Positions 198-11,931 of a stretch of 12,065 nucleotides of DNA are shown piece after piece. A program made the translations under genes and the position numbers. Within the stretch, counting starts at the first letter, position 1; every line of letters starts with the position of its first letter. Location: IMG/VR virus record IMGVR_UViG_2579778856_000001; one strand, 5' to 3'. The DNA comes from a virus. Lineage: Duplodnaviria; Heunggongvirae; Uroviricota; Caudoviricetes. The notes below the pieces were generated by a model that was not told where the DNA came from, did not search any database, and worked only from the letters and a program-made list of their open reading frames with translations.

Positions 198-395
198 AAT
201 TCTCGTCTGATGGCTACATACGGCGGTCAGTTTACGCTTACGTCCCTTCTGGTCAAAATGGACGAAGAAATGCTCTGCTTCTTCGACAGCAACGGGCGAA
301 CCACCATGCCCCGTAAAGCTTTCTCCCTGCGTACTGGCGTAACCCGCCGCCAGCTGTTTCCAGACGCCATTTACTTCATTGAACGGGAGTTCTGA
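198..395 (+). pseudogene. 3' remnant of an unidentified gene truncated by the IS66-family insertion, translationally coupled to the radC-like gene
   Basis: Track ORF 210-395 stays open back to 198, and the in-frame TAA at 189-191 lies inside the IS end. Codon usage is coding-like (TTC x6, ACC x3, GAC x3, CTG x3). The stop TGA 393-395 sits 1 nt before the radC-like ATG (tgacATG). No own start or RBS, and no family recognised. The antisense ORF 171-449 is the competing reading. Confidence 0.4.
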
Positions 396-396
396 C

Positions 397-849
397 ATGA
401 CCATGTTTACCCAGCGTGAAACCCGTATCCTTGACCAGGCGCGTGACATTATTAGCCGGTACTACCAGCGTGGGGTTCAACTCTGTTCCCCTGATGATGT
501 TCGACGGTGCGTGATGGTTGAGCTGGCACCGCTTGAACATGAAGAGTTTGGCATCATCCTACTCGATAATCATAATCAGCTGCTGCACCGCGAAATCCTG
601 TTCAGGGGTACGCTAAACTCGGTCAGCGTTCACCCCCGTGAAGTTATTAAGCGTGTGCTGAAACATAACGCCGCCGCCGTCATCCTTGTCCATAATCACC
701 CCAGCGGCGAGCCTGAACCCAGCCGGTGTGACATCCAGTTGACCAAAAAGCTTCAGGAGCTGCTGGAAATACTGGATGTGCGGTTACTTGATCACTTTAT
801 CGTGGCAGGAACTGAAACGGTGTCGATGGCTGAGCGAGGACTGGTGTGA
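397..849 (+). CDS. radC: RadC-like JAB-domain protein (DUF2466; YeeS/YkfG/YfjY-type of CP4-like islands)
   Basis: Track ORF 379-849 starts at TTG; ATG 397 is preferred (MTMFTQRETRIL...). Typical RadC-like core: EEFGIILLDNHNQLLHREILFRGTLNSVSVHPREVIKRVLKHNAAAVILVHNHPSGEPEPSRCDIQLTKKL...LDHFIV, including the HNHPSG metalloprotease-like motif. Confidence 0.85.
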   Translation: MTMFTQRETRILDQARDIISRYYQRGVQLCSPDDVRRCVMVELAPLEHEEFGIILLDNHNQLLHREILFRGTLNSVSVHPREVIKRVLKHNAAAVILVHNHPSGEPEPSRCDIQLTKKLQELLEILDVRLLDHFIVAGTETVSMAERGLV

Positions 850-895
850 TGCTGAAAGTTACTTGGTTTAATGTACGTTATTGCGGGTTACGCGC

Positions 896-1825
896 ATGAG
901 CAGGACAGCGTTGCGTCAGGTCGTGCCGGTGGTGCAAACCACCGTGTTCGATGCGTATATTGTCGGTCTGGCCCCCTCGGGACGGCGAGGTATCACCAGC
1001 CTGTTAAACCGCAGCGCCAGCATACTTAAACACGGTGCGGATGCAGCAGACTATCCGTGGGAACAACTTAACTACGCCGCCGTTGCCAAAGTGCGCGCGG
1101 CACTGCTGGATGACGGTTACGCCGTGTCATCGGTCAACATGGCGCTGTCAGCACTCCGGGGCGTAGCGCAGACGGCCTTTAACCTCAATTACATGGATGC
1201 CGAAACGCTGGCACGTATCCGGTCAGTTAAGCGCGTGAGCGGCGATGTCCAGCGCAAGGGAAGGGCGCTGGGCAGGCAGGAAATCCGGGTACTGATTCAG
1301 GCTGCAAAACAGCATCCGCAATCTGTACGGCGCTGTCGCGATGTCGCCATTGTGCTGATGCTTTGCGGAACGGGCCTGCGGGCCGGGGAACTGGTTAAAC
1401 TTGAGCGCCGGGACTATGACAACGGCATCCTGACGGTGAGGCAAGGGAAGGGGCGTAAATACCGTGAAATTCACGTGGCGGATGCGGTGGACAAGGCTAT
1501 TCGTGCGTGGCTGAAAGTTGGCGCAGACGAGGCTGACAGTGCGTTGTTTAGGCGAATTCAGCGCAGTGGTAAGGTCGCAAGCCAACCGCTGACTACGACC
1601 GGGTTAACGGGTATCCTGGCTGAGTTACAGCAAACGGCAGGTATAGCACGTTTTACCCCGCATGATATGCGGCGCACCTTCATCACCCGTTTGCTGGAGC
1701 AGGGCGTGGATATCAATACCGTCCGCCAGTTGGCAGGCCACAGCGACATATCCACGACGACGCGCTATGACTGTCGTGGTGATACTATGAAGATCAGTGC
1801 CAGCAAGCGCATCAGATGTTTTTAG
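896..1825 (+). CDS. Tyrosine site-specific recombinase (XerC/XerD-like phage integrase family)
   Basis: Track ORF 881-1825 (TTG start); ATG 896 gives MSRTALRQ.... The catalytic signature is in the correct order: GTGLRAGEL (Arg), GKGRKYREI (Lys), HDMRRTF (His-x-x-Arg), GHSDISTTTRYD (His ... Tyr nucleophile). An N-terminal SAM-like core-binding segment is present (VSSVNMALSALRGVAQ). Confidence 0.9.
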   Translation: MSRTALRQVVPVVQTTVFDAYIVGLAPSGRRGITSLLNRSASILKHGADAADYPWEQLNYAAVAKVRAALLDDGYAVSSVNMALSALRGVAQTAFNLNYMDAETLARIRSVKRVSGDVQRKGRALGRQEIRVLIQAAKQHPQSVRRCRDVAIVLMLCGTGLRAGELVKLERRDYDNGILTVRQGKGRKYREIHVADAVDKAIRAWLKVGADEADSALFRRIQRSGKVASQPLTTTGLTGILAELQQTAGIARFTPHDMRRTFITRLLEQGVDINTVRQLAGHSDISTTTRYDCRGDTMKISASKRIRCF

Positions 1826-2426
1826 CAGTTGAGGCGTTGCCAGACTCGGTTTCAGTTTCATCTTCAGCACTCAACCGCGCGTACTTTTGATTCTGGATGT
1901 TAATTTGTGCATTGATATTTTCAGGCTGAAGCATCCACGCAACATCCTCACGCGCCCATTCTTTACCGTCAGAGAGTCGTTTTAACCGGGGTTTCCATAT
2001 TCCATACTCATTAAGTTTTTCTGCTACCGAAGCATATTTCTCACGATCTGACTCCCCCGTATGAAGCTTGTCAAAACGACCTTTTACAAGCTGGTAAACA
2101 GTATAGATTTCCAGTGCCTTAGGGGACCTGGCCGGGACTATCATGGGGTGTTCCTCCGGCCTATAAATCCCGTTTGGCTCTCCCTCATTGAGCAGGTCAT
2201 TAAACATGTGGTTCACGCAGGCACTCAGCACATCTGCCGCTTTCTCCGCAGCGAATTTATCCGGGCTAAAACCCGCTCCCGTCAGTTTCCGGGCAATCAG
2301 TGCCAGTTTTTGCCGGGTATCCCGTCCCAGATAAAGCTTCTTCTCCAGAAATTCAAAGACCTCGTTACTGCTTTTCCGTTCCCGGTGGCATCTGGCGTCA
2401 GCCTTGTTGCTTTGGTTACCAATCAT
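1812..2426 (-). CDS. Hypothetical 204-aa protein, divergent from alpA; possible ribbon-helix-helix-type island regulator
   Basis: Track ORF 1812-2438. The second ATG (2426) is preceded by GGAGGT (2431-2436, minus) and is preferred. KKLYLGRDTRQKLALIARKL weakly resembles an RHH strand-helix. Acidic C-terminal tail (SAEDETETES). Its 3' end overlaps the recombinase 3' end by 14 nt. No confident family. Confidence 0.6.
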   Translation of the reverse strand: MIGNQSNKADARCHRERKSSNEVFEFLEKKLYLGRDTRQKLALIARKLTGAGFSPDKFAAEKAADVLSACVNHMFNDLLNEGEPNGIYRPEEHPMIVPARSPKALEIYTVYQLVKGRFDKLHTGESDREKYASVAEKLNEYGIWKPRLKRLSDGKEWAREDVAWMLQPENINAQINIQNQKYARLSAEDETETESGNASTAKNI

Positions 2427-2648
2427 AGTCACCTCCATGACAGTGTTTTGTACAAAATATCACCATTGAGCCTCAGTGAAAATTGCTTCTTTATATGACC
2501 GTTCTGGAGACAGAAATAGATGATCTCGAATGACATCCACATTAAAGATGCCCTTAACGTGCTCAACGAAGGCATCGTTGAGTGAATCCTTGCGTTTTTT
2601 GGTGGTTGTAAATAACCCGCTCCTGAAACAGCTCAAAGGAGCACAAGC

Positions 2649-2846
2649 ATGAACACCAACCGTATTTTGCGTAAAAAAGAGGTACTTCATCTGACGGGGA
2701 ACTCGTCAGCGACGTTGTACCGACTCATCTCGAAAGGATTCTTTCCTTTGTCAAAGAGGCTAACGGGCGACAATGGCCGGGCGGTAGGCTGGCTGGAGAG
2801 TGATATCAATAACTGGGTTAACAGCCGTATGCAGGCGGGAGAATGA
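2649..2846 (+). CDS. alpA: AlpA-family phage/island transcriptional regulator (excisionase-like HTH, MerR superfamily)
   Basis: 65 aa. ILRKKEVLHLTGNSSATLYRLISKGFFPLSKRLTGDNGRAVGWLESDINNWVNSR matches the AlpA signature (LRxKEV...TGxSxSTLYRLI..G.FP.P.KLG.RAVGW.ESEI..W). AAGGAG lies 8 nt upstream of the ATG. Confidence 0.9.
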   Translation: MNTNRILRKKEVLHLTGNSSATLYRLISKGFFPLSKRLTGDNGRAVGWLESDINNWVNSRMQAGE

Positions 2847-2847
2847 A

Positions 2848-3315
2848 ATGAAAGAGATAAAATCGAAAACCAGTTCTGCGAAAAAAACGCTGGTTCCTTG
2901 GTTCGAAACTATGGGGAAACAGGTTGGTTTATCACAAGAAACGATATCAGCAGTGTTAAAGGAGCAGCGTTTACGGATACGTAAGCTTAACTACGCATCT
3001 GCATATACAGTGTCCAATATTCTCATACAGGATTGCGGCGGGGCCGATGACATGTGGAGCAACTACGCTAAACTGGCGCTTATCCTTGAGCGTTGTAAAT
3101 ACATTCCCTGCGGGAGCAGGGCCTGTGCATATTGTTCTACCGCTCAGCAATTACATTATCAGGGGGTGGATGTAACCGGGGAATACGCTTTATATCAGTT
3201 GCCTGAGTTATTTTTAGATTTTTTAGAAACAAACGACAAAAATTCCTCTTATCATTGGGATTACAATAAGTTAGTTGAGCGGCATGAAGATGCTCAGGCG
3301 AGGTCATTCGGGTAA
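2848..3315 (+). CDS. Hypothetical 155-aa protein with an N-terminal HTH-like segment and a Cys cluster
   Basis: Track ORF 2800-3315. The internal ATG 2848 follows the alpA stop (2844-2846) by 1 nt and has GGGAGA 6 nt upstream, so alpA-coupled translation is preferred. MGKQVGLSQETISAVLKEQRL looks like a helix-turn-helix. CKYIPCGSRACAYC is a possible metal site. No family recognised. Confidence 0.65.
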   Translation: MKEIKSKTSSAKKTLVPWFETMGKQVGLSQETISAVLKEQRLRIRKLNYASAYTVSNILIQDCGGADDMWSNYAKLALILERCKYIPCGSRACAYCSTAQQLHYQGVDVTGEYALYQLPELFLDFLETNDKNSSYHWDYNKLVERHEDAQARSFG

Positions 3316-3346
3316 TAGCCATTTCTGTATGGTGAAAAACTGACAT

Positions 3347-3381
3347 ATTACCCTGCCACTGCATTTTGGTGGCAGGGTAAT
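3347..3381. other. Perfect 13-bp stem-loop between the 155-aa and 284-aa genes
   Basis: ATTACCCTGCCAC (3347-3359) pairs with GTGGCAGGGTAAT (3369-3381) around a 9-nt loop. No T-run follows on the plus strand, so it is not a canonical terminator. The arm and loop contain CCACTGCATTTT, which recurs at 4335-4346. Confidence 0.6.
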
Positions 3382-3402
3382 CAATACAGCTAGGAATATT
3401 AA

Positions 3403-4257
3403 ATGAACGATTCTTATTACTTCAGAACATCTGACCCGGATTACATTCGTCACGCACCGTCAATGCTTGAGATTTTAAGTAAAGCATTCCCCACTATTAT
3501 TACCCAGCAGGAAAGTGAGTATGAACTGCAGCGTCTTAACCATTTACTAAATAAACTGAAAGGCAGCAATCGCTGCTACAACATCATTGCTCAAAAACTA
3601 AGGCAGTGCAGAAACGGATCTCCATGCAACAGTCTTATATGCCCGCATTGCCAGCGGGAACGCATTCTGGCGCAACTGGCTATGTTGCATGTCTTGCCGG
3701 GGAATTCAGCAGAATACGTGGGAGTGGTCCTGTTTTTCAACAAGGATACGCAAACTCCGCCGCCATGGAAGAACATTGGGGCGCTCAGGGCGCAAATCGG
3801 TCGTTATAAGCAGAGGATAAGCCGGGTACTTAACCGCCTGGGGTACGCCGGTCCGGCCACAGGCACCTTCAGTATGATGCGACATATGCCTGATGGCCCA
3901 GAAGAGCGTATTTTCTGGGTTCCACAGTTGTGTTTGTTCCTGCCCAATGACAGTACGTTGATTAAGGGGCTAAAAGCGCATATGTCGCGAAGTGGTGGGG
4001 CATTCATTGATGCATCGACGCTTAACACACCAGTGATCGTGCTCAGGTATAAAGATCCCGCGAGACTGATTTCATGCGCCCTGAATCCAGTCTGGCACAC
4101 AGCAGATTACACACTGACTGATAAAGACGCTCTTGTTAAGTCAAGAATGGAGCTACTGAAAGGCCGGACACTGTTAAAAAGTCTGCTTACCCTGGACTCA
4201 CTCGGAACAGGTGTCGTTTCTTTTTCGTTTGGGCAACCCCCAGGGAAAGTGCACTGA
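3403..4257 (+). CDS. Hypothetical 284-aa protein with a C-x5-C-x4-C-P-x-C zinc-ribbon-like motif
   Basis: Track ORF with ATG start and AGGAA 8 nt upstream. The motif QCRNGSPCNSLICPHCQRERILAQ falls at about aa 68-90. It recalls the PCGxCxxCR zinc motif at the N-terminus of some rolling-circle Rep proteins, but no HUH histidines are seen at the expected place (FWVPQLCLFLPN). The function call is therefore open. Confidence 0.7.
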   Translation: MNDSYYFRTSDPDYIRHAPSMLEILSKAFPTIITQQESEYELQRLNHLLNKLKGSNRCYNIIAQKLRQCRNGSPCNSLICPHCQRERILAQLAMLHVLPGNSAEYVGVVLFFNKDTQTPPPWKNIGALRAQIGRYKQRISRVLNRLGYAGPATGTFSMMRHMPDGPEERIFWVPQLCLFLPNDSTLIKGLKAHMSRSGGAFIDASTLNTPVIVLRYKDPARLISCALNPVWHTADYTLTDKDALVKSRMELLKGRTLLKSLLTLDSLGTGVVSFSFGQPPGKVH

Positions 4258-4270
4258 TTTACCGGTAATG

Positions 4271-4401
4271 CAGCAACTGCAATGCACTTTTGCTGTTGAT
4301 TAAATTGCAGTGGAACGACGAATAACAGCGGCAACCACTGCATTTTCGTTGTTGTAAAACTGCAAAGCTTGCCAGTGATTTTGATGGCGCTGATGCACTT
4401 T
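4271..4401. repeat. Iteron/operator-like cluster of ACTGCA(A/T) and ATGCACTTT motifs with two hairpins
   Basis: ACTGCAA at 4276-4282, inverted copy TTGCAGT at 4305-4311, ACTGCAT at 4337-4343, ACTGCAA at 4359-4365. ATGCACTTT at 4282-4290 and 4393-4401. Hairpin CAGCAA/TTGCTG at 4271-4276/4290-4295. Hairpin TGCAGTGG/CCACTGCA at 4306-4313/4335-4342, followed by TTTT. Confidence 0.5.
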
Positions 4402-4439
4402 AACATTCCAACTGTCTCGATTTTAACGCAACCGTCTGT

Positions 4440-4833
4440 TTTCTGCAGGGGCTCACGGATGCCTCTGCACACCCGATCCTTACCATCAACTGACGAGTTA
4501 GCGCATCTGTGAGGGCTTTCTGTGTTTCTGTCAGTGAATATTCTACACACAATGGGGGGAGCGGTCAGCGAGCACCATTGCCATTGAGCGCAACGGAGAG
4601 CTTGGGGACATGCAGCACTACGGAGGCTTCATCTCCTTCTCATGTCATTAAACGATACGGCGAACGAGCGCAGCGAGTGAGGGAAGGCGTCAGCCTGAAC
4701 AGGGGGAAAGATTTGCGACCGGAGTGGAGCAAATCATGGGCGGAGCCCATCCTCGCGACTGGGGTTTTGACTTTCGAATTGCCCAGCGTTGAGTTTGGTT
4801 AATGTAGTGAGACGAGGATGCTGAGAGGGGACC
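4440..4833 (+). other. ORF-poor, more GC-rich leader upstream of the polymerase-like gene; candidate structured RNA or 5' UTR
   Basis: Only alternative-start or antisense ORFs with implausible composition cover it. Local hairpins: TGCAGGGGC/GCCTCTGCA (4444-4452/4461-4469, one G-U pair) and ATGGGC-gga-GCCCAT (4736-4750). Micro-tandems: TTTCTGTG/TTTCTGTC (4517-4532) and CCATTG x2 (4575-4586). Direct repeats GAGCGCA, CAGCGAG and GCGACYGG. No known RNA family recognised. Confidence 0.3.
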
Positions 4834-6231
4834 GTGAGTACTGAAAAGGATTATCCAGTGAAGATCCCTAAGTGGGTTTATGACCGTATTACTGAAATAA
4901 CGGATTATGTCGTGGGGGATACGCAATGGGCTGTTACCCGGCGGCAGACAGTACGGTGGTTCCTGGCTCACATATGGCTGGAAACAGACGATGATGGCTG
5001 GACTATATGCACTGTCCGGGATATCCGTAGCAGCTATGCCAGTCTCCTGGGACAGTGTGAAATTAGTTACCAGGGGGAGTGCTTTATGTCCACGCTAACT
5101 GATTTCCTGCCGACACTTTCGGATATTGAATTTCGTGCAGGAAAAGCGAGCAAAGACCCGGAAAAGCGTAGAGCCAGTGCATGGCGGTTCAACCCCCTGC
5201 TGCCTGTGTGTGATGAGTCTGCCAGGGGTAAGTTAAATCTGGTTGACTTGGATACTGGTGAGTCTGTTAGTTTTAGAGCTCTGCTTCAGGGGAACGGGAA
5301 AGCTCCTGGGCATGCGATAGATGTAGAGAAACGCCAGACGGCCCTAAAACAAACGGAAAAGGACTTCTTGGCCAAAGTTGGGCGGGGGCGCATGAGTATA
5401 CAGTTTGTGAAGGAATTGCGTAGCCGTGAGCCGGATCACTATTACCGCGCAGGAATACGCAGCCTTAACCATCTCTACAATGGCAGGATTGAGGGACAAT
5501 ATGTCACTTACGACCATCATTATCGTCTGACGTTTGGAGGGCGGTATTATGATCAAGCTTTCCAGAATCTGCCCAATGAGTTCAAAGCTAAATTTCGGAC
5601 CGGGTTACTCAACTATGACATCGAAGCGTGCAATCTGGCCTGTCTGAACCATCTGTTCAGACAGTATGACGTCGATTATCGTGTGAAGTCATCGATATAT
5701 AAAACCATGATGGAACATACCGGGCTGACCCGTAAACAGTGCAAACAGATGGTCCATACCACCACCTACAGAATTGGGCGTGTGACTATTGGTGTTAATG
5801 ATGGCCTTGGGGCAAAAGTGTATGGATGGTGCGGTAACAGCAAAAAAAAGGCGCTAAAGATTTTGCGTTGGTGGAACCGTTATATCAGTCCATTGAAATC
5901 TGCGCTTGAGTCATTGCTGGAACGTGTGCATGGCGCACACCGCAAGAGTTGTTCATCACCGCGTAACTATCACAGGTACGCTAATGAAGTCGGATTAATA
6001 CTGGATCTTAATAGTGAGGTGTATCAGCGTGAAAAGACTCACCATCATCAATATGCGCGGAATAAGGCACTGTTGGCGTTTATGATCTGTGGTGTGGAGC
6101 AGGCGTATATCCGTGAGGTTGTCAGTATGAACCCTGGTCGTGTCTGCATGCTGGATCATGATGGGGTAGTGGCAACGGGCGCGCTTTCACTACCGGACTG
6201 GCGTGGTTTCACGATGAAAGTGAAGGACTAG
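4834..6231 (+). CDS. Compact family-A DNA polymerase-like protein (palm/fingers motifs present, no exonuclease domain); putative island replication polymerase/primase
   Basis: GTG start directly after an in-frame TGA (4822-4824), with GAGGGG at 4825-4830. Ordered PolA motifs: TFGGRYYDQAFQNLP (aa 233-247, compare TGRLSSxxPNLQNIP); LLNYDIEACNLACLNHL (aa 258-274, compare DYSQIELRxxAHL, motif A); RKQCKQMVHTTTYRIG (aa 300-315, exact R-x3-K-x7-Y O-helix spacing, motif B); VCMLDHDGVVA (aa 437-447, compare QVHDE, motif C). Inter-motif spacings resemble those of Pol I. Confidence 0.75.
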   Translation: MSTEKDYPVKIPKWVYDRITEITDYVVGDTQWAVTRRQTVRWFLAHIWLETDDDGWTICTVRDIRSSYASLLGQCEISYQGECFMSTLTDFLPTLSDIEFRAGKASKDPEKRRASAWRFNPLLPVCDESARGKLNLVDLDTGESVSFRALLQGNGKAPGHAIDVEKRQTALKQTEKDFLAKVGRGRMSIQFVKELRSREPDHYYRAGIRSLNHLYNGRIEGQYVTYDHHYRLTFGGRYYDQAFQNLPNEFKAKFRTGLLNYDIEACNLACLNHLFRQYDVDYRVKSSIYKTMMEHTGLTRKQCKQMVHTTTYRIGRVTIGVNDGLGAKVYGWCGNSKKKALKILRWWNRYISPLKSALESLLERVHGAHRKSCSSPRNYHRYANEVGLILDLNSEVYQREKTHHHQYARNKALLAFMICGVEQAYIREVVSMNPGRVCMLDHDGVVATGALSLPDWRGFTMKVKD

Positions 6232-6355: not shown

Positions 6356-7045
6356 TGTGAGTTCAACGGGTCGATGCAACGCTGTCCCTAATCAAGGGGG
6401 ACGTTGCCATGAAACGAAGAACTCGTATTAACTACACGCCAGAGCAAAAGGTGATTATTTGGGACAGATATAAGCAAGGTGATTCCCTGCATGATATCCC
6501 CCAGAATGTTCGACAGATTTCACTCTACTATCATGCCTACAATCCACCAGGCCGGTGGCTACCGTCCTCCCGTGCGAAAGCGGCACCGGTTAGCGTTTTC
6601 GCTTGATGAAAAAGAGGAGATATCCAGAGGACTGGTAGCAAAACGCATCATCAGGGACATCGCTGCTAAATTATCAATAGCTCCCTCAACGATTAGCCGC
6701 GAGATCAGGAGGCACGGCGGTGCAAAACAATACCGTGCAGCAAAAGCCGATCCTGCTGCGTGGGAAAATGCTCTGAGACCAAAACCTTGCAAGCTAATTG
6801 AAAGCCCCACATTGTGTAAAATCATTGCAGAGAAGATGCATCAGGACTGGTCGCCGGAACAAATTGGCGGTTGGCTAAAACGCTGTTATCCCGATAATCA
6901 GGAAATGCATGTGTCACATGAAATGATTTATAAAACGCTTTTTATACCAACCCGGGGAGCTTTAAAAAAAGAGCTGCAGCAATGCCTCAGAAGCGGAAGA
7001 GTAGTGCGTAGATCCAAAACCTCATCACTTAAAGTAAACAGAGAT
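6356..7045 (+). mobile_element. IS30-family insertion sequence remnant: left inverted repeat plus a 5' portion of the transposase gene; right part deleted
   Basis: TGTGAGTTCAACGGGTCGATGCAACGCTG (6356-6384) resembles, from memory, the IS30 IRL (TGTAGATTCAATTGGTCAACGCAACAG). It is followed by an IS30-type transposase N-terminus. No DDE catalytic domain and no right IR occur before the next gene. Confidence 0.65.
6409..7045 (+). pseudogene. IS30-family transposase pseudogene (frameshifted and 3'-truncated)
   Basis: Two track ORFs (6409-6606 and 6479-7090) join into one IS30-like N-terminus, MKRRTRINYTPEQKVIIWDRYKQGDSLHDI / (P)RMFDRFHSTI...STISREIRRHGG...WSPEQIGGWLK...HVSHEMIYKTLF...LRSGRVVRRSKTSSLK, if one C is removed from the C5 run at 6498-6502. 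Similarity ends near aa R188 of the second ORF (about 7042), before the DDE domain. Confidence 0.75.
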
Positions 7046-7227
7046 ACATTCTGGTCACGAATGCCCGGTTGTTCGTGCTTTGCGTTTTAATCGCATTTTA
7101 CAGTTTCTGCCTGCGTGCAGAGGTTGATGGTATTTTCTGAAAAAGCGGCTCGCTTTGCTAATGCATATGGCACAAATACAACAGTTTGTGTCATTCTGAC
7201 CCATCTTTATACCGCGACGGTGGAAAC

Positions 7228-9798
7228 ATGGATGAGCTGCTAACCCTTGGCTGCATTGCTTTATTCTTCGCACTGGTGGTGGTTCCCATCCTCGCGATTA
7301 TCGCGCTCAGCCGCAGCACGGCTGTTCGTTCTGAGCTGGCGACCCTGCGTCGCCGGGTGGAGGTGCTTGAGCAGCGCGGTGTGACTGAAGCACCCGCCAC
7401 AGTGGTAACAACTGTGCCGCAGAGTGTTTCGCAGATGGTTGTGCCTGTTGAAACGTCTTCGCCTGCGGTTAACATCGTGCTGTCGGAGCCTGTGGCTGAT
7501 GTCACGCCTGAGTCCGTTGACCCCTGGCGTCCACAACCGAAGCCGCAAAACGAGGCGCTACCCACACCAGCGGTCGAACAATCTTCCGCTTTTGGTGGGG
7601 TGATGTCGTCCCTGGTGCGCTGGTTTATGCAGGGCAACCCGCTGGCAAAGCTGGGTATTCTGCTTCTCTTCCTTGGCTTCTCCTTCCTGCTGCGTTATAC
7701 GGTTGAACACTCCCTGTTCCCGCTTGAGCTACGTCTGGTGGCGACTTCGCTGTTTGCGATTGCCCTGCTGGTAGTGGGCTGGCGATTGCGGCATAAACAG
7801 CTGGTTTATGCGCTGATCATACAGGGTGGAGCTACGGGGACGCTCTATCTCACCGTTTTTGGCGCATTCTGGCTCTGGCAGATGCTGCCGATGACGCTGG
7901 CGTTTGCATTACTGGTGGCGATTTGCGCGGCGAGCGTGGGACTGGCGATTATGCAAAAAGCGCTCAGCCTCGCGATGCTGGCAAGTATCGGTGGCTATCT
8001 GGCACCGCTGTTGCTTTCCACCGGCGGCGGTAGTCATGTGGCGCTCTTCTCTTTCTACCTTCTGCTTTCCGTCGGTATTCTCGCCATCAGCATCTGGCAA
8101 CACTGGCGCGAGCTTAATCTGCTTGGCCTGTTATTTACCTTTGGTATCGGCGGTCTTTGGGGACTCGACGGCTATCGATCAGAGTATTACCTGAGCAGTC
8201 AGCTTTTCCTGATAGCCAATACGATCATTTTTGGTGTGCTGAGCGTGGCGCTATCGCTACGAGCACAGGAGAAAGGTAAGCAGATTATTGATGGCGTGCT
8301 GTTGTTTGCATCGCCGCTGGTCGGTTTTGGCATGCAGTACGCCATAACCCGGCATATGGAATATGGTCCGGCGCTTAGCGCGCTGGGTTACGGCGGTTTC
8401 TATCTGGCGTTAGCATGGCTTGCATTGCGTCGCTATCCCTCTTTGGGGAGGCCGCTGGTGCTGGCGGCGCTGGCGCTGGGTGGGGCATTTACCACGCTCG
8501 CTATCCCACTGGCGCTTTCGGCCCGCTGGACGGCGATGGCCTGGGCGCTGGAAGGTCTCGGCATCCTCTGGCTGGGCGTGCAACAGCAGCAGCGGCGTAT
8601 GAGCTATAGCGGCACTGCGCTGCTGGTGCTGGCAGTGTGCAGCGCGCTGTGGGCGCAGATGAACGGGATGAGCGCGCTTTCTCTGGTGCTAATCTTTGCC
8701 GTACTCAGCCTCAGCTGGCTGGCTGCCGCCTGGCTGTGGCGCAATATTCAGTTGCAGGGTAGTTGGGTTCTGTTGGCTGGCGGTTTGATCTTCTGGATAA
8801 TCGCGCTCATTGGGGCATCGCAACTGGTGCTGAAAAAGGACTCGCTGGTGCTGTCTGGCGTGCTGGCGTTAATGGCGATATCGGTCTGGGGCTGGCGGAT
8901 TGTCTCTGGTCGTCTGGCCTGGTGGGAGCTGGATGTCAGCAAATGGTTGCTGTGGCCGACGATGCTGGTGATGCTGCTGTCTCAAATTTCACAACATGAG
9001 ATTTTTGCTGCGGGCTGGCAGAATCTGGCCTGGTGTCTGGCGTTACCCGCTGCGGGGGCATTGCTCTGGCGTGATGCTGAGACGTTGCCGCCGCGCCTCT
9101 CCAGACTGGCGCACCTTTCACTCTTCTGGATGATTCTGCTCGCGCTGGCGGCGGAGCTATTCTGGTTTGCGCAAGATCTGCCATGGGGCATGGCGGCGTG
9201 GGGCTCCGGCCTGATGATGGCCGCGGGGGGCCTGCTCATCTTTCTCGTTCATGAGGCGGTTCATCGTCAGCTATGGCCATTCCGAAGCTGGCCCGCACTC
9301 TACGCTTCTCAGGCGATGATACCGGTAGCTGCGGTATTGGTTGTTCTGCTAGTACTGACGAATTTGCAGGATGGCGTAGTTTATCGCCAGACCTGGCTGC
9401 CGCTGGTGAATCCACTGGAGGAGGGGGCCGCTTTTGCGCTACTGGGACTCATTGTATTTTATCGCGTTTCGCAGCGCTTTTTCCCGGTGCAGATTTCGGT
9501 ATGCCGTCCCTGGCCGCTCATTGCACTGCTGGCGCTTAGCTTCTGGTGGCTGAATGGCATCCTGCTGCGCGCATTGGCCTGGTACGGCGAAGTGCCCTGG
9601 AGCGCGGAAACACTGTGGCATTCGCGGCTGATTCAGACCTGTTTTGCCCTGTTCTGGATGCTGGCGGCATTAGTGGTGATGCTACGTGCGACCCGGCGTT
9701 GCTCACGTCGCGAATGGCTTTGTGGATCCGTATTGTTAGGGATTGTTATTGTGAAACTGATGTTGGTAGACAGTGCGCGTGGCGGCGGCCTGGCATGA
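7228..9798 (+). CDS. DUF2339-type polytopic inner-membrane protein (856 aa), apparently lacking its natural C-terminus
   Basis: Track ORF 7186-9798 (TTG start). ATG 7228 with GGTGGA upstream gives MDELLTLGCIALFFALVVVPILAIIAL. The layout is one TM, then a coiled LATLRRRVEVLEQRG segment, then a Pro/Val-rich linker, then more than 20 hydrophobic helices. This is the architecture I recall for DUF2339. It ends ...KLMLVDSARGGGLA, and the TGA stop is supplied at the sequence-character break (9796). Confidence 0.8.
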   Translation: MDELLTLGCIALFFALVVVPILAIIALSRSTAVRSELATLRRRVEVLEQRGVTEAPATVVTTVPQSVSQMVVPVETSSPAVNIVLSEPVADVTPESVDPWRPQPKPQNEALPTPAVEQSSAFGGVMSSLVRWFMQGNPLAKLGILLLFLGFSFLLRYTVEHSLFPLELRLVATSLFAIALLVVGWRLRHKQLVYALIIQGGATGTLYLTVFGAFWLWQMLPMTLAFALLVAICAASVGLAIMQKALSLAMLASIGGYLAPLLLSTGGGSHVALFSFYLLLSVGILAISIWQHWRELNLLGLLFTFGIGGLWGLDGYRSEYYLSSQLFLIANTIIFGVLSVALSLRAQEKGKQIIDGVLLFASPLVGFGMQYAITRHMEYGPALSALGYGGFYLALAWLALRRYPSLGRPLVLAALALGGAFTTLAIPLALSARWTAMAWALEGLGILWLGVQQQQRRMSYSGTALLVLAVCSALWAQMNGMSALSLVLIFAVLSLSWLAAAWLWRNIQLQGSWVLLAGGLIFWIIALIGASQLVLKKDSLVLSGVLALMAISVWGWRIVSGRLAWWELDVSKWLLWPTMLVMLLSQISQHEIFAAGWQNLAWCLALPAAGALLWRDAETLPPRLSRLAHLSLFWMILLALAAELFWFAQDLPWGMAAWGSGLMMAAGGLLIFLVHEAVHRQLWPFRSWPALYASQAMIPVAAVLVVLLVLTNLQDGVVYRQTWLPLVNPLEEGAAFALLGLIVFYRVSQRFFPVQISVCRPWPLIALLALSFWWLNGILLRALAWYGEVPWSAETLWHSRLIQTCFALFWMLAALVVMLRATRRCSRREWLCGSVLLGIVIVKLMLVDSARGGGLA

Positions 9799-10156: not shown

Positions 10157-10789
10157 TCATTCATCGTTCGTTGCACGAACGCGCCTGATCTCCACTCTGG
10201 CAATCTGATCTGCTGGAATATAGGTTGCCAGAGCTCCCCAGTACTTATCAACCACGCCTTTATACTCTTCCCATTCGTTACTGCCTGAAGGGCTGCTGTG
10301 CGTGACGTAAAGAACCATATCGCCTTTATTCCCCAGGGTAAACGGACCGTTAGGCCACTCTTCAAAGTTCCCTGGCAGCCGTGACATCATACCGGAACCA
10401 TCGCGAAGAATCACTCTGACCTCGGTAACGCTGAAGCCTGTTTGATCAAACATTGCCTGCCATGCTGAGCTGGTATCGTCAGACCATGAAATATCATTAT
10501 TCCACAGTAATCTGTACATCCATTTGCGACCGTACCTGCGCCACCACGCACCGCATGTAAGGGCACACAGAAGTGCTGGTGGTGTTGCCAGCCAGGCATT
10601 CAGACCTGCCCACATAACAGCCTGGTAAGCCATCATTGCTGTCAGGCCAAAAATCAGCGAAGAAAAAGTCACCTCAATGGGCTTGTGGTGATCCTTCAGT
10701 CCCACATTCGCAATAAAATACCCAATATAGCCACTGGTCAGGGTCACCAGTGTTGCCCATGGCAGATTTAACAACGAAACGTCAAACAT
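10157..10789 (-). CDS. 210-aa membrane protein: three N-terminal TM helices plus a soluble C-terminal domain of about 110 aa (prophage cargo, unknown function)
   Basis: Track ORF 10157-10867. Its first 26 codons span the mor terminator, so ATG 10789 with AGGGAGAA upstream is preferred (MFDVSLLNLPWATLVTLTSGYIGYFIANVGL...). TM helices: LPWATLVTLTSGYIGYFIANVGL, VTFSSLIFGLTAMMAYQAVMWAGL, AWLATPPALLCALTCGAWW followed by RRYGRK. The C-terminal domain is W/E/D-rich. No family recognised. Confidence 0.7.
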   Translation of the reverse strand: MFDVSLLNLPWATLVTLTSGYIGYFIANVGLKDHHKPIEVTFSSLIFGLTAMMAYQAVMWAGLNAWLATPPALLCALTCGAWWRRYGRKWMYRLLWNNDISWSDDTSSAWQAMFDQTGFSVTEVRVILRDGSGMMSRLPGNFEEWPNGPFTLGNKGDMVLYVTHSSPSGSNEWEEYKGVVDKYWGALATYIPADQIARVEIRRVRATNDE

Positions 10790-10827
10790 ATTTTCTCCCT
10801 GCATCCTGAATACTAAAGAGAGAGCAT

Positions 10828-10861
10828 AAAAAAAGCACGGTAAGGGGTCTACCGTGCTTTT
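10828..10861 (-). terminator. Rho-independent terminator downstream of mor (bidirectional geometry, stronger on the minus strand)
   Basis: Stem GCACGGTA (10835-10842) pairs with TACCGTGC (10850-10857) around the loop AGGGGTC. It is flanked by A7 (10828-10834) and T4 (10858-10861). Read on the minus strand, the hairpin is followed by TTTTTTT. Confidence 0.8.
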
Positions 10862-10903
10862 ATACAATAAGGAGATTTTTGAAAGGACTTTAACAAGCAG
10901 GAA

Positions 10904-11302
10904 TTATCTGGATTTGTTAACGTCTTTCGTCTCCTCTGGCAGATCTTCATCAAACAACCTGCCCTGCATCCGATCCAGTTCTTCTTTTCTGACCCGCTTA
11001 ACCACGCTGTAGACCCACTGAAGCGAAACACCAAACTTGCGGGCCAGTTCGTGGTGGTTGCGTCCGTTAAACTCCCTGAAGATTTCCCGGTCGCGCTGAC
11101 TGACCTTCCATACCATGCCCATCGGGAAATAAACGTTTTGCCCGCCCCAGACCTGCATCATTCGGTTCGCGACGGCCTGACCAATCTGGTCGGCAACTTC
11201 GGGCTCAATATCAATAATCTCGCGAACGGTCTCAGAGGTATGCTGTGCCAGTTCCACCAGGAGTTCCGGCCCCTTACTTCGAAACTGATTCAGGTCGCTC
11301 AT
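10904..11302 (-). CDS. mor: Mor-family middle-operon transcriptional activator (Mu gp17-like)
   Basis: 132 aa with GGGAG upstream. The central GGQNVYFPMG...REIFREFNGRNHHELARKFGVSLQWVYSVVKRVRK parallels Mu Mor (GGGQVYIPRG...IWNDFNGRNVSELTTRYGVTFNTVYKAIRRMRR). Located immediately downstream of gemA, as in Mu. Confidence 0.85.
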   Translation of the reverse strand: MSDLNQFRSKGPELLVELAQHTSETVREIIDIEPEVADQIGQAVANRMMQVWGGQNVYFPMGMVWKVSQRDREIFREFNGRNHHELARKFGVSLQWVYSVVKRVRKEELDRMQGRLFDEDLPEETKDVNKSR

Positions 11303-11726
11303 GTTTGACTCCCGCAGCTCTGCGCTGCCACTTCTTCAGTTTCTCAATAACACTGCTTGCCTGTTCAGTACTGAGCCAGCGCAGGGCGCTGATGCCCGTT
11401 TCCCGCTTGATCCACCGCGCTAATGCATTTTCTGAACGGTCACGAACAATGCCGGCAGCAGCCATTTCAAGCCATAGCGCACGGATTTTCCTGGACTGCG
11501 GATGGTTATCCAGCGGTAAACCGGAGCTGGCTTTTCCGGCAGGCTTAACGCGAAAGCCTTTCCTTTTCATGGATTCCAGCACGCAGTTTAGTTGTGTGGT
11601 ATCCATTCCTTTGGTTGAGGCTTTACCGGTCAGCCCCTGTAACATCTGGCGGTAGGTGTCTTCATCCATACCCAGTTCATTACGGGCAATATGAATGAGC
11701 TGGATAAGACGTTGTTTAGTCATCAT
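11274..11726 (-). CDS. gemA: GemA-like regulatory protein (Mu gp16, DUF1018)
   Basis: Track ORF 11274-11765. ATG 11726 has AAGGAG 5 nt upstream (MMTKQRLIQLIHIARNELGMDEDTYRQML...). IHIAxxxLGxDxDTYRxxL...RKIRALW...ALxRWIKRETGISALRWL is the DUF1018/GemA pattern. It overlaps the mor start by 29 nt. Confidence 0.8.
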   Translation of the reverse strand: MMTKQRLIQLIHIARNELGMDEDTYRQMLQGLTGKASTKGMDTTQLNCVLESMKRKGFRVKPAGKASSGLPLDNHPQSRKIRALWLEMAAAGIVRDRSENALARWIKRETGISALRWLSTEQASSVIEKLKKWQRRAAGVKHERPESVSK

Positions 11727-11931
11727 CGTTGCTCCTTTTACCTGCGCCACCGATATAATCGACATATAAAGGAAGCGCCACAGGCCAGCACAGGAACATC
11801 ACCGACCAGCTAATCCAGTAGCCAGCACCACTGTAACGTGAATAAAACCCTGAACGGCGGTGCAGTTCAGCAGTACACCAACCGACAAAACAATACCAGA
11901 ACAGGGCACATACAACAGATTCAGCCGTCAT
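11716..11931 (-). CDS. Small 71-aa two-TM membrane protein of the Mu-like early region
   Basis: Track ORF 11716-12045 (GTG start). The internal ATG 11931 is preferred because a better-looking upstream gene in another frame ends at 11921. MTAESVVCALFWYCFVGWCTAEL...YWISWSVMFLCWPVALPLYV gives two hydrophobic helices. Its stop overlaps the gemA start (ATGATGACTAA). Confidence 0.5.
   Translation of the reverse strand: MTAESVVCALFWYCFVGWCTAELHRRSGFYSRYSGAGYWISWSVMFLCWPVALPLYVDYIGGAGKRSNDDD

Follow-up and report, generated by a model that had tools for sequence, protein, structure and literature searches.

A predicted minimal family-A polymerase and its linked cis element in the AlpA-led module of an undescribed family of enterobacterial defence islands

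The gene string led by alpA at positions 2649-6231 of a 12,065-nucleotide (nt) stretch of DNA (IMG/VR virus record IMGVR_UViG_2579778856_000001; the window, hereafter, is this whole stretch) ends in a gene for an active-looking relative of family-A polymerases. A single conserved cis element lies just upstream of that gene. Both belong to a previously undescribed family of chromosomal islands of Enterobacterales, inserted at the 3' ends of ychF and yicC. The reading we favour, tentatively and with confidence that stops short of even, is that the string acts as a control and replication module of the island. In that reading, a primer-independent polymerase resembling the TV-Pols and CCPol would start replication of the excised island at the cis element.

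The gene content of the window was read from a six-frame list of open reading frames (ORFs) and from Pfam and NCBIfam scans, with further scans against PHROGs and PADLOC. A reading made earlier from the sequence alone had described four co-oriented ORFs, and the ORF list bears this out, with all four on the plus strand. The features of the string, in window coordinates, are as follows.

2649-2846, plus strand: alpA, a MerR-like helix-turn-helix (HTH) excision and transcription regulator (PF05930, E = 2.6e-12; phrog_2790, excisionase/regulator)
2848-3315, plus strand: orf155, a short form of the Cys4 family (N-terminal region plus CxxxxPCxxxxCxxC)
3403-4257, plus strand: orf284, a full-length Cys4-family protein in the variable slot (Cys4 cluster, then a ferredoxin-like domain)
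4241-4350, plus strand: two hairpins (4241-4295, and 4302-4346 followed by TTTT; inverted repeats I1 and I4), a putative terminator
4537-4562, plus strand: conserved cis element, ATATTCTACACACAAT followed directly by GGGGGGAGC (G run at 4554-4559), candidate promoter or initiation site of the polymerase gene
4554-4854, plus strand: leader, a non-coding region with blocks conserved across loci at 4554-4590 and about 4657-4760 and a repeated CAGCGAG
4834-6231, plus strand: predicted minimal family-A (PolA-like, TV-Pol-like) polymerase of 465 amino acids (aa), probable start GTG at 4855
5530-5544, plus strand: TxxGR motif of the polymerase, T233-F-G-G-R237, then QNLP (R237 and Q244 invariant in the 35-member alignment)
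5617-5619, plus strand: motif A, catalytic Asp D262 (NYDI), invariant
5731-5745, plus strand: motif B, R300-x3-K304 in the O-helix (K304 invariant; aligned to R518/K522 of T7 DNA polymerase)
6157-6162, plus strand: motif C, H442-D443 (MLDHDG; H442, D443 and G444 invariant)

The frame of the last gene is longer than its current annotation. Homologues of 454-480 aa from Salmonella, Yersinia, Citrobacter, Raoultella, Pectobacterium and Serratia span the full 465-aa frame, down to 45% identity, and the probable start codon is accompanied by a conserved MKIPKW and the Shine-Dalgarno sequence AAGGA. The RefSeq/PGAP call is a 381-aa hypothetical protein that begins at 5086 and leaves out window positions 4834-5085 (24834-25085 of locus L001). 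Because the homologues cover the whole frame, this call loses a conserved N-terminal winged-helix-like domain. Relatives are scarce, as a hidden Markov model search of 1.84 billion representative proteins returned only 70, and the distant ones (430-590 aa) align to the C-terminal 240 residues only.

Assignment to family A comes from fold and catalytic residues. None of orf155, orf284, the 465-aa ORF and the divergently transcribed orf204/208 has a match in Pfam, NCBIfam, PHROGs or PADLOC at E <= 0.1, which agrees with the earlier statement that three of the four proteins after AlpA could be assigned to no named family. AlpA is itself the only PHROG match within the string, and its identity is as first given. 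A fold search detects a Klenow-type thumb, palm and fingers arrangement at about residues 185-465 and, at about residues 10-125, a domain with winged-helix matches only. No exonuclease or nuclease domain is found in the protein, whose first 120 residues are winged-helix-like instead. Across 35 proteins, down to 15% identity, R237, Q244, D262, K304, G420, E422 and H442-D443-G444 are invariant. R237 of TxxGR precedes QNxP, and G420 and E422 form a QGxE ahead of motif C; invariance of R300 is confined to the 23-member main family, and remote members vary at this position. The invariant residues are exactly the family-A catalytic set, and the gene encodes a real, if very divergent, family-A polymerase.

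Sequence libraries contribute little to this assignment. Even at E <= 5, none of the 35 superfamily members matches Pfam, remote relatives likewise have no NCBIfam match, and PDB searches with the single protein or with the close-family profile gave noise only. The 35-member profile, searched against PDB, retrieved motif B of T7 DNA polymerase (E = 0.008), with Pol theta next, and this weak T7 match is the sole sequence-level link to family A. The name PolA-like, given to the gene from its sequence, is thus upheld by the fold search and by one weak profile match, and not by the sequence libraries. In the Klenow enzyme, deoxynucleotide (dNTP) selection depends on the steric-gate Glu E710 and an aromatic residue at K+4. 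Judged by motif alignment and not by superposed structures, the steric-gate position is occupied by A269 in the main family and by N, S, M, E, A or T in relatives, and the K+4 position of the main family is H, L or I, not aromatic. This sequence-dark branch of minimal family-A polymerases is new. No paper found in the full-text literature describes the polymerase family or the cis element, and two recent surveys of family-A polymerases describe no such group (PMC10201439, PMC12926913).

The genomic setting of the polymerase is that of a conserved island family. The window region is identical to chromosomes of the E. coli ST131 type, for example MNCRE44, in which it sits in an island of ~29 kb between dhaR and ychF. 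In total, 577 of 5426 complete E. coli genomes carry at least 80% of the 7.2-kb region, the pandemic ST131 lineage included. Read from contigs that encode divergent polymerase homologues, the island backbone includes a leftward operon that encodes an HTH_35 or HTH_3 protein together with one of 175 aa and with small FtsK-gamma-like proteins. Next comes a rightward set (DUF2787, a protein of ~160-180 aa, RadC and sometimes an XerC-like recombinase), then an opposite-strand ORF (~175-250 aa), AlpA and a variable slot; the polymerase lies beyond 200-600 nt of non-coding DNA and is itself followed by variable cargo. Salmonella-, Yersinia-, Serratia-, Pectobacterium-, Klebsiella- and Gilliamella-type islands share the part of this layout that runs from RadC to the cargo. 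The remote polymerases of Klebsiella (499 aa) and Gilliamella (490 aa), at ~26% identity to the window protein, occupy the same backbone, in the order RadC, an ORF of ~230-250 aa on the minus strand, AlpA, polymerase and cargo.

Individual components differ in how regularly they occur. The alpA gene is present in every related island examined with an intact module (L003 and L004 lack it), and homologues of orf204, with 174-249 aa and 25-60% identity, are placed and oriented alike in every island examined. RadC lies beside the module in L005, L006, L036, L038, L039 and L041. The XerC-like recombinase is present in L006, L038 and L039 and absent from L002, L005, L036 and L041. At one island end, beside ychF or yicC, is a P4-type integrase (Arm-DNA-bind_3, Phage_int_M and Phage_integrase domains); it adjoins ychF ~28 kb away from the XerC-like gene. 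The XerC-like recombinase, which the earlier reading had grouped with the string, is not the island integrase and is missing from several relatives that have the backbone. Cargo examples include Gabija-like OLD/UvrD, type I restriction-modification (RM), DUF3644/DUF4365, deaminases, a retron and ABC-three-component (ABC-3C) genes. Island sizes range from about 11 to 29 kb, and the smallest complete example (L036) measures about 11.5 kb.

From this recurring backbone, it follows that the polymerase is a hallmark of the backbone and invariably closes it, and that the IS30 remnant to its right, in the cargo-proximal region, has not truncated the module. The suggestion of a regulatory and replication-type module of a mobile island, led by AlpA and distinct from known satellites, holds up in the relatives, where the module is conserved. 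The companion suggestion of a minimal integrative replicon does not, as the string is one module of a much larger island. The polymerase can serve as a hallmark gene for this defence-carrying family at ychF and yicC. Roughly a tenth of complete E. coli genomes contain it, with no annotation beyond a truncated 'hypothetical protein', and it adds a branch from Gammaproteobacteria and jumbo phages to the minimal PolA (TV-Pol) world.

Phage relatives of the polymerase provide contextual evidence of function. Foldseek comparison with viral models retrieved uncharacterised proteins (405-550 aa) from jumbo phages of Dickeya and Erwinia (E down to 8e-10), tblastn matched the polymerase to gp220 of an Erwinia Alexandravirus, and the Klebsiella and Gilliamella island polymerases match phrog_30690, of unknown function, at 1e-28 to 1e-30. 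The phage homologues neighbour genes for a 5'-3' exonuclease, a DHHA1/RecJ-like protein, ThyX, PhoH, a Holliday-junction resolvase, a clamp loader and a UvrD helicase. By association, these replication and nucleotide-metabolism neighbours favour a role in DNA replication or repair. As a separate observation, the 395-nt gap before gp220 in Erwinia phage pEa_SNUABM_1 holds six CTGTAG repeats (GCTGTAGC / CCTGTAGTAGC; L043 4985-5075), which may be an iteron-like or promoter array.

The cis element lies in the 576-nt gap that separates orf284 from the 465-aa ORF. Its consensus is (A)ATT-n-CTAC(A/T)CA(C/T)(A/T)AT-GGGG(GG)AGC; main-family members carry CTACACAywAT-GGGGGGAGC, and L006 has CTGCACACAAT. 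Exactly one copy, on the coding strand and 200-360 nt upstream of the polymerase start, is found in 32 of the 34 loci with the region. The element occurs once in the window and is absent from shuffled sequences, and no further copies exist within +/-10 kb at up to 5 mismatches in a 20-mer. Two blocks of the gap (4543-4594 and 4661-4752) are 82-87% identical to Serratia loci, against 68.5% for coding sequence.

Distribution of the element points to the polymerase as its partner. It is kept where AlpA is only 48-62% identical to the window AlpA. It is lost in the Klebsiella island, where AlpA is 62% identical and the polymerase is of a different subfamily; the Klebsiella and Gilliamella polymerase subfamilies lack the element, with only vague TAC...TATG similarities in its place. 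On one or two such contrasts, the element goes with the polymerase subfamily rather than with AlpA or host. The polymerase gene also appears to be insulated from the alpA operon. The hairpins at 4241-4350 fold at -21.1 and -16.7 kcal/mol (z = -2.3 and -1.9) and form a putative terminator, and L002, L005, L012 and L036 carry a perfect TTTTCCATTTTT/AAAAATGGAAAA palindrome at the equivalent position; all subtypes have hairpins or terminator-like palindromes between element and alpA operon. A scan for sigma70-type promoters gave no match on the element's strand. Together, hairpin insulation and this negative scan make the element the best candidate for the promoter or initiation site of the polymerase gene.

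Two other explanations of the conserved gap were tried and rejected. A structured leader RNA (a retron-like template, a riboswitch or an RNAII-like primer) finds little in RNAalifold output, which gives only two small hairpins and one covarying pair; the thermodynamic stability of the leader equals that of shuffles (z = -0.06), and an Rfam scan of the whole window returned nothing at E <= 1. The little covariation and the lack of excess stability argue against a structured RNA and for recognition at the DNA level or in a sequence-specific manner. A 97-aa ORF at 4509-4802 is ruled out by a 13-nt indel of L006 within the conserved block, so the leader is non-coding. Further upstream, window positions 4260-4440 contain TGCA-centred repeats (AACTGCAATGCACTTTT, AAATTGCAGTGG, CCACTGCATTTT, AAACTGCAAAGC and GATGCACTTT) and two TAAC(T/C)G boxes, and Serratia loci carry ATGCACTTTT-n7-AAAAAGTGCAT at the equivalent position. 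Besides terminator stems, these repeats may be operator sites.

The closest described enzymes are the TV-Pols, predicted primase-polymerases of integrase-linked elements in RM-rich hot spots (PMC2579912). Their only characterised member, CCPol-MP of SCCmec, has been proven to be a PolA-type primase and prefers a start site close to its own operon (PMC7581432, PMC10061031). The island proteins (455-470 aa) fall within the 400-600-aa range of TV-Pols and are likewise minimal family-A polymerases without a nuclease domain. They share the Arg-bearing hairpin, the two catalytic Asp residues and RxxxK in the fingers, as well as an extra N-terminal domain, which a subset of TV-Pols has. Their genes similarly lie amid tyrosine recombinases, insertion sequence (IS) elements, type I RM, Gabija and retron genes, and a de novo start at a preferred site near the polymerase's own operon, proven for CCPol, is predicted here. 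Differences are also evident. No library or profile used here connects TV-Pols such as CCPol or Sputnik V13 to the island polymerase at the sequence level, and PDB and Pfam contain no TV-Pol entry that the profiles match. The accessory protein of the islands is a dispensable Cys4/ferredoxin-like protein, unlike that of CCPol, and the dNTP-specificity Glu and Phe are not conserved. The range of the island polymerase (Enterobacterales, related Gammaproteobacteria and jumbo phages) also sets it apart from TV-Pol.

A polymerase fold with an intact catalytic set, a position next to an excision regulator and a polymerase-linked element together suggest a sequence-specific, primer-independent family-A enzyme. 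As TV-Pols are its nearest described counterparts, a replication-priming module with the element as initiation site is favoured. In this model, AlpA, countered by the divergent orf204 regulator, would turn on excision. The 465-aa protein, in this view a TV-Pol/CCPol-like polymerase of family A that is minimal, lacks an exonuclease and binds DNA through a winged-helix domain at its N-terminus, would then begin nucleic-acid synthesis de novo at the single element CTACACACAAT-GGGGGGAGC, a short distance ahead of its own gene. As the steric-gate Glu of PolA is missing, the product would probably be RNA or a mixed primer, from which host replication proteins could copy the island circle. orf155 and orf284 would act as optional accessory factors from the variable slot. 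If the enzyme does prime replication, post-excision amplification of helicase-less islands would be explained. The pairing of a compact enzyme with a 26-bp candidate recognition site is directly testable in vitro.

Several points weigh against this model. A helicase, single-stranded DNA-binding protein or initiator was recognised in none of the islands, and no backbone examined encodes a D5-like/Cch2 or other P-loop helicase or the OB-fold partner (MP). The element is not AT-rich, and there is no obvious iteron array or set of DnaA boxes. CCPol keeps the dNTP-selecting Glu and Phe that the island family does not (PMC7581432). An accessory slot that is variable or empty argues against a fixed two-component primase. 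Furthermore, the likeness to TV-Pol and CCPol is drawn from descriptions and not from direct sequence comparison, the replication-gene neighbourhoods belong to distant phage relatives and not to the island genes, and excision and replication of the island are themselves deduced from gene content.

The main rival reading, which we consider unlikely, would make the 455-470-aa protein a miniature DNA-dependent T7-like RNA polymerase and the element CTACACAyWAT-GGGGGGAGC its own promoter. Transcription of its own gene would read through into the cargo and leave the defence genes independent of host RNA polymerase, and the transcript might double as a primer for replication. The RNA-polymerase and replication-priming readings overlap, since transcription and priming are both carried out by the RNA polymerases of T7 and of mitochondria. 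The protein shares with T7-like RNA polymerases (T7, T3, SP6, K11; N4 RNAPII) the palm, fingers and thumb fold and a small residue at the steric gate, where the Glu is replaced as at G542 of T7 RNA polymerase in the motif alignment. The element aligns with T7-group promoters in register with the G run at which they start, having in common a CAC(T/A)AT core directly before that run and an AT-rich segment from -17 to -13. Agreement with T7 and K11 promoters extends to 15-16 of 23 positions; for the L002 variant, TTTTACTACTCACTATGGGG, 13 of 17 upstream positions are those of T7. However, matches of at least 15/23 arise by chance in these loci at 2.2e-4 per position, that is, several per locus. 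Hence, the T7 likeness weighs only because it coincides with one pre-identified conserved block, at roughly p = 2e-3 post hoc.

Other observations on this RNA-polymerase role are similarly divided. The element is the only conserved candidate promoter of a hairpin-insulated gene, lacks a sigma70-type alternative on its strand and tracks the polymerase subfamily rather than AlpA or host, all in favour of this reading. In 8 of 10 islands, the polymerase and the gene that follows it point the same way, but this proportion is not significant. Each island has a single copy of the element, whereas T7-like promoters are many, and its -10-like CAywAT with GGGA would fit a host promoter too. Compared with T7 RNA polymerase, the protein is half the size, a winged helix replaces the promoter-binding domain, PF00940 is not matched, and neither a specificity loop nor an AT-rich recognition loop was identified. 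Fold scores and profile similarity are closer to DNA polymerases. Were the idea correct, the protein would be the smallest natural T7-type single-subunit RNA polymerase with a T7-like promoter, encoded in a chromosomal defence island of E. coli ST131 and other Enterobacterales, a doubtful proposition at present. As such, it would provide an orthogonal transcription system that is both new and minimal, and would stand as a living intermediate linking DNA polymerases of family A to the RNA polymerases of phages or mitochondria, with a clue to the origin of T7-like enzymes. In the island, it would form a self-amplifying unit that keeps genes expressed, and perhaps primes replication, when phages shut off host transcription.

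A host role for the element has a somewhat lower probability still. Here it would be an activator-dependent sigma70 promoter (-10 CAywAT with a GGGA-type discriminator), and the enzyme a repair or translesion, template-switching, anti-phage or anti-defence polymerase. In the -10-like hexamer, the A at -11 and the T at -7 never vary, variation falls on the positions that tolerate it, and a G-rich discriminator comes next. The leader is conserved in sequence and not in structure, as expected of protein-binding DNA or regulatory sites, and the islands carry defence cargo (retron, Gabija, RM, ABC-3C). Yet there is no -35 box, extended -10 or match in the sigma70 scan, and the element is lost where the polymerase subfamily changes despite a similar AlpA. 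Moreover, the polymerase is a fixed backbone gene next to an excision regulator rather than variable cargo, and it has no PADLOC match.

Essentially excluded is the earlier proposal of a P4-type or phage-inducible chromosomal island (PICI) satellite that lost its helicase-primase and hijacking genes through truncation by IS30 on the right: an AlpA-led operon near an integrase is typical of such satellites and an IS30 remnant does follow the polymerase gene, but the polymerase is full length, and in uninterrupted relatives from eight genera it directly precedes variable cargo and the island end, with no primase-helicase, Sid, Psu, Delta, TerS or capsid genes. The absence of P4 alpha, Pri-Rep, sid/psu/delta and terS that had been noted is real and extends from the window to the related islands, where Pfam and PHROGs give no match for them (ppi and rpp included). 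In 2.9 million viral contigs, only one partial match was found.

Pipolins offer a similar architecture. Like the present islands, they are integrative and bimodular, end in a P4/SXT-type integrase gene and carry exchangeable defence cargo, and both place a small second tyrosine recombinase and an excisionase near a gene for a primer-independent polymerase, a property predicted for the present island (PMC11551731). Both have a DUF2787 gene, which here is 53% identical in aa sequence to that of an E. coli tRNA-Leu island. In contrast to pipolins, the polymerase belongs to family A and is not piPolB, the sites are ychF and yicC rather than tRNA-Leu, and neither a WYL protein nor any PolB-like protein (piPolB) was found in the islands. 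The resemblance is architectural only. A pipolin backbone with a swapped polymerase was considered and rejected, as DUF2787 alone is shared with the tRNA-Leu island and WYL is lacking. The pipolin study itself reports 'piPolB-less, pipolin-like islands' with DUF2787 as core marker (PMC11551731). As a side observation, about 360 E. coli genomes contain a match to a second DUF2787 gene fragment, 72-75% identical. In the one locus inspected, that of G4/9 (L044), it belongs to a different island, which carries type I RM cargo and lies at the glyW-cysT-leuZ tRNA cluster, probably a pipolin-type site though no piPolB is annotated in G4/9.

Islands at the tmRNA site of Pseudomonas, which encode IntY, AlpA, RadC and an HTH protein and are moved by a jumbo phage (PMC12595487), provide another, looser comparison. 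They, too, combine a small integrase with AlpA, RadC and HTH proteins, carry defence cargo without conjugation or capsid genes, and have a protein of unknown role beside AlpA. Unlike the present family, they encode YqaJ and an inovirus-Gp2-like protein, have no PolA-like gene, and occupy other sites in other hosts.

The slot between AlpA and the polymerase is filled in most islands by one protein family, defined by BLAST and alignment through CxxxxPCxxxxCxxC and a C-terminal domain; it is empty in L002, L005, L036 and L041. The Cys clusters recorded for orf155 and orf284 are real and are also homologous to each other (CKYIPCGSRACAYC in orf155, CRNGSPCNSLICPHC in orf284). orf284 is 27-45% identical to 285-301-aa proteins of L004, L006, L035 and L038, and it carries C69/C75/C80/C83 ahead of the ferredoxin-like domain. 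orf155 aligns at 35% identity with the first 106 residues of the 301-aa protein of L038, and such short Cys4 forms of 148-155 aa are widespread. On sequence comparison, then, the two are not the independent novelties they had seemed, but paralogues of one Cys4 family in a dispensable slot. The structure model of orf284 is poor (pLDDT 45.6) and matched only generic ferredoxin-like folds. Cys4 proteins are probably optional accessory zinc proteins that bind nucleic acid. In the Klebsiella island, the slot (L039 6468-7613) encodes instead a 381-aa protein unrelated to the Cys4 family, for which Pfam, PHROGs and PDB returned nothing. At the alpA side, the alpA stop TGA (2844-2846) is followed by the orf155 ATG (2848-2850) after a 1-nt spacer, with GGAG within the alpA end. 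The same arrangement, abutting or overlapping, marks the junction of AlpA and the next gene in L006, L035 and L038, which agrees with the translational coupling proposed for alpA and orf155.

The genes that flank the string in the window are the following.

379-849, plus strand: radC, RadC/JAB family (PF04002, E = 6.7e-46), backbone gene of the island family
881-1825, plus strand: XerC-like small tyrosine recombinase (PF00589, E = 1.4e-31), optional backbone gene
1812-2438, minus strand: orf204/208, putative regulator, a divergently transcribed core gene without a family match
about 6357-7090, plus strand: IS30-family remnant, outside the module (NF033563, E = 7.8e-17; HTH_38)
right of the IS30 remnant: DUF2339 membrane-protein gene (six-frame ORF list and family scans)

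The IS30 remnant is a frameshifted transposase N-terminus, incomplete according to PGAP, whose C-terminal catalytic part is gone; a left inverted-repeat-like end (TGTGAGTTCAACGGGTCGATGCAACG) is retained at 6357-7090. Elsewhere in the MNCRE44 island, an ISEc23 insertion (IS66 family) lies immediately left of radC. The left arm of the ST131 island (L001 7958-13489) encodes a retron Ec67-type reverse transcriptase/endonuclease and an ABC-three-component system, so that this island has cargo at both ends. The search for att repeats, advised earlier, gave a divided result. In MNCRE44, the only repeat found, a 12-nt direct repeat TTAGACGTTGAA, occurs at the ychF stop codon (L001 7071-7082) and at 35669-35680, 28.6 kb apart, with the right copy beyond the retron Ec67 gene, and is a candidate attL/attR core; nothing comparable was found in four other loci.

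At its right end, the window leaves the island. From ~9785-9795 it exits the DUF2339 gene, which is truncated here and encodes 885 aa in MNCRE44, and continues to 12065 as the end of a Mu-like transposable prophage. The genes of this end all lie on the minus strand: phrog_12870 at 10157-10867, Mor at 10904-11302 and a gp16/GemA-like gene at 11274-11765. In other genomes, the same 2.3-kb Mu-like end adjoins rfaH, phnP, yfaV, flgJ and other genes.

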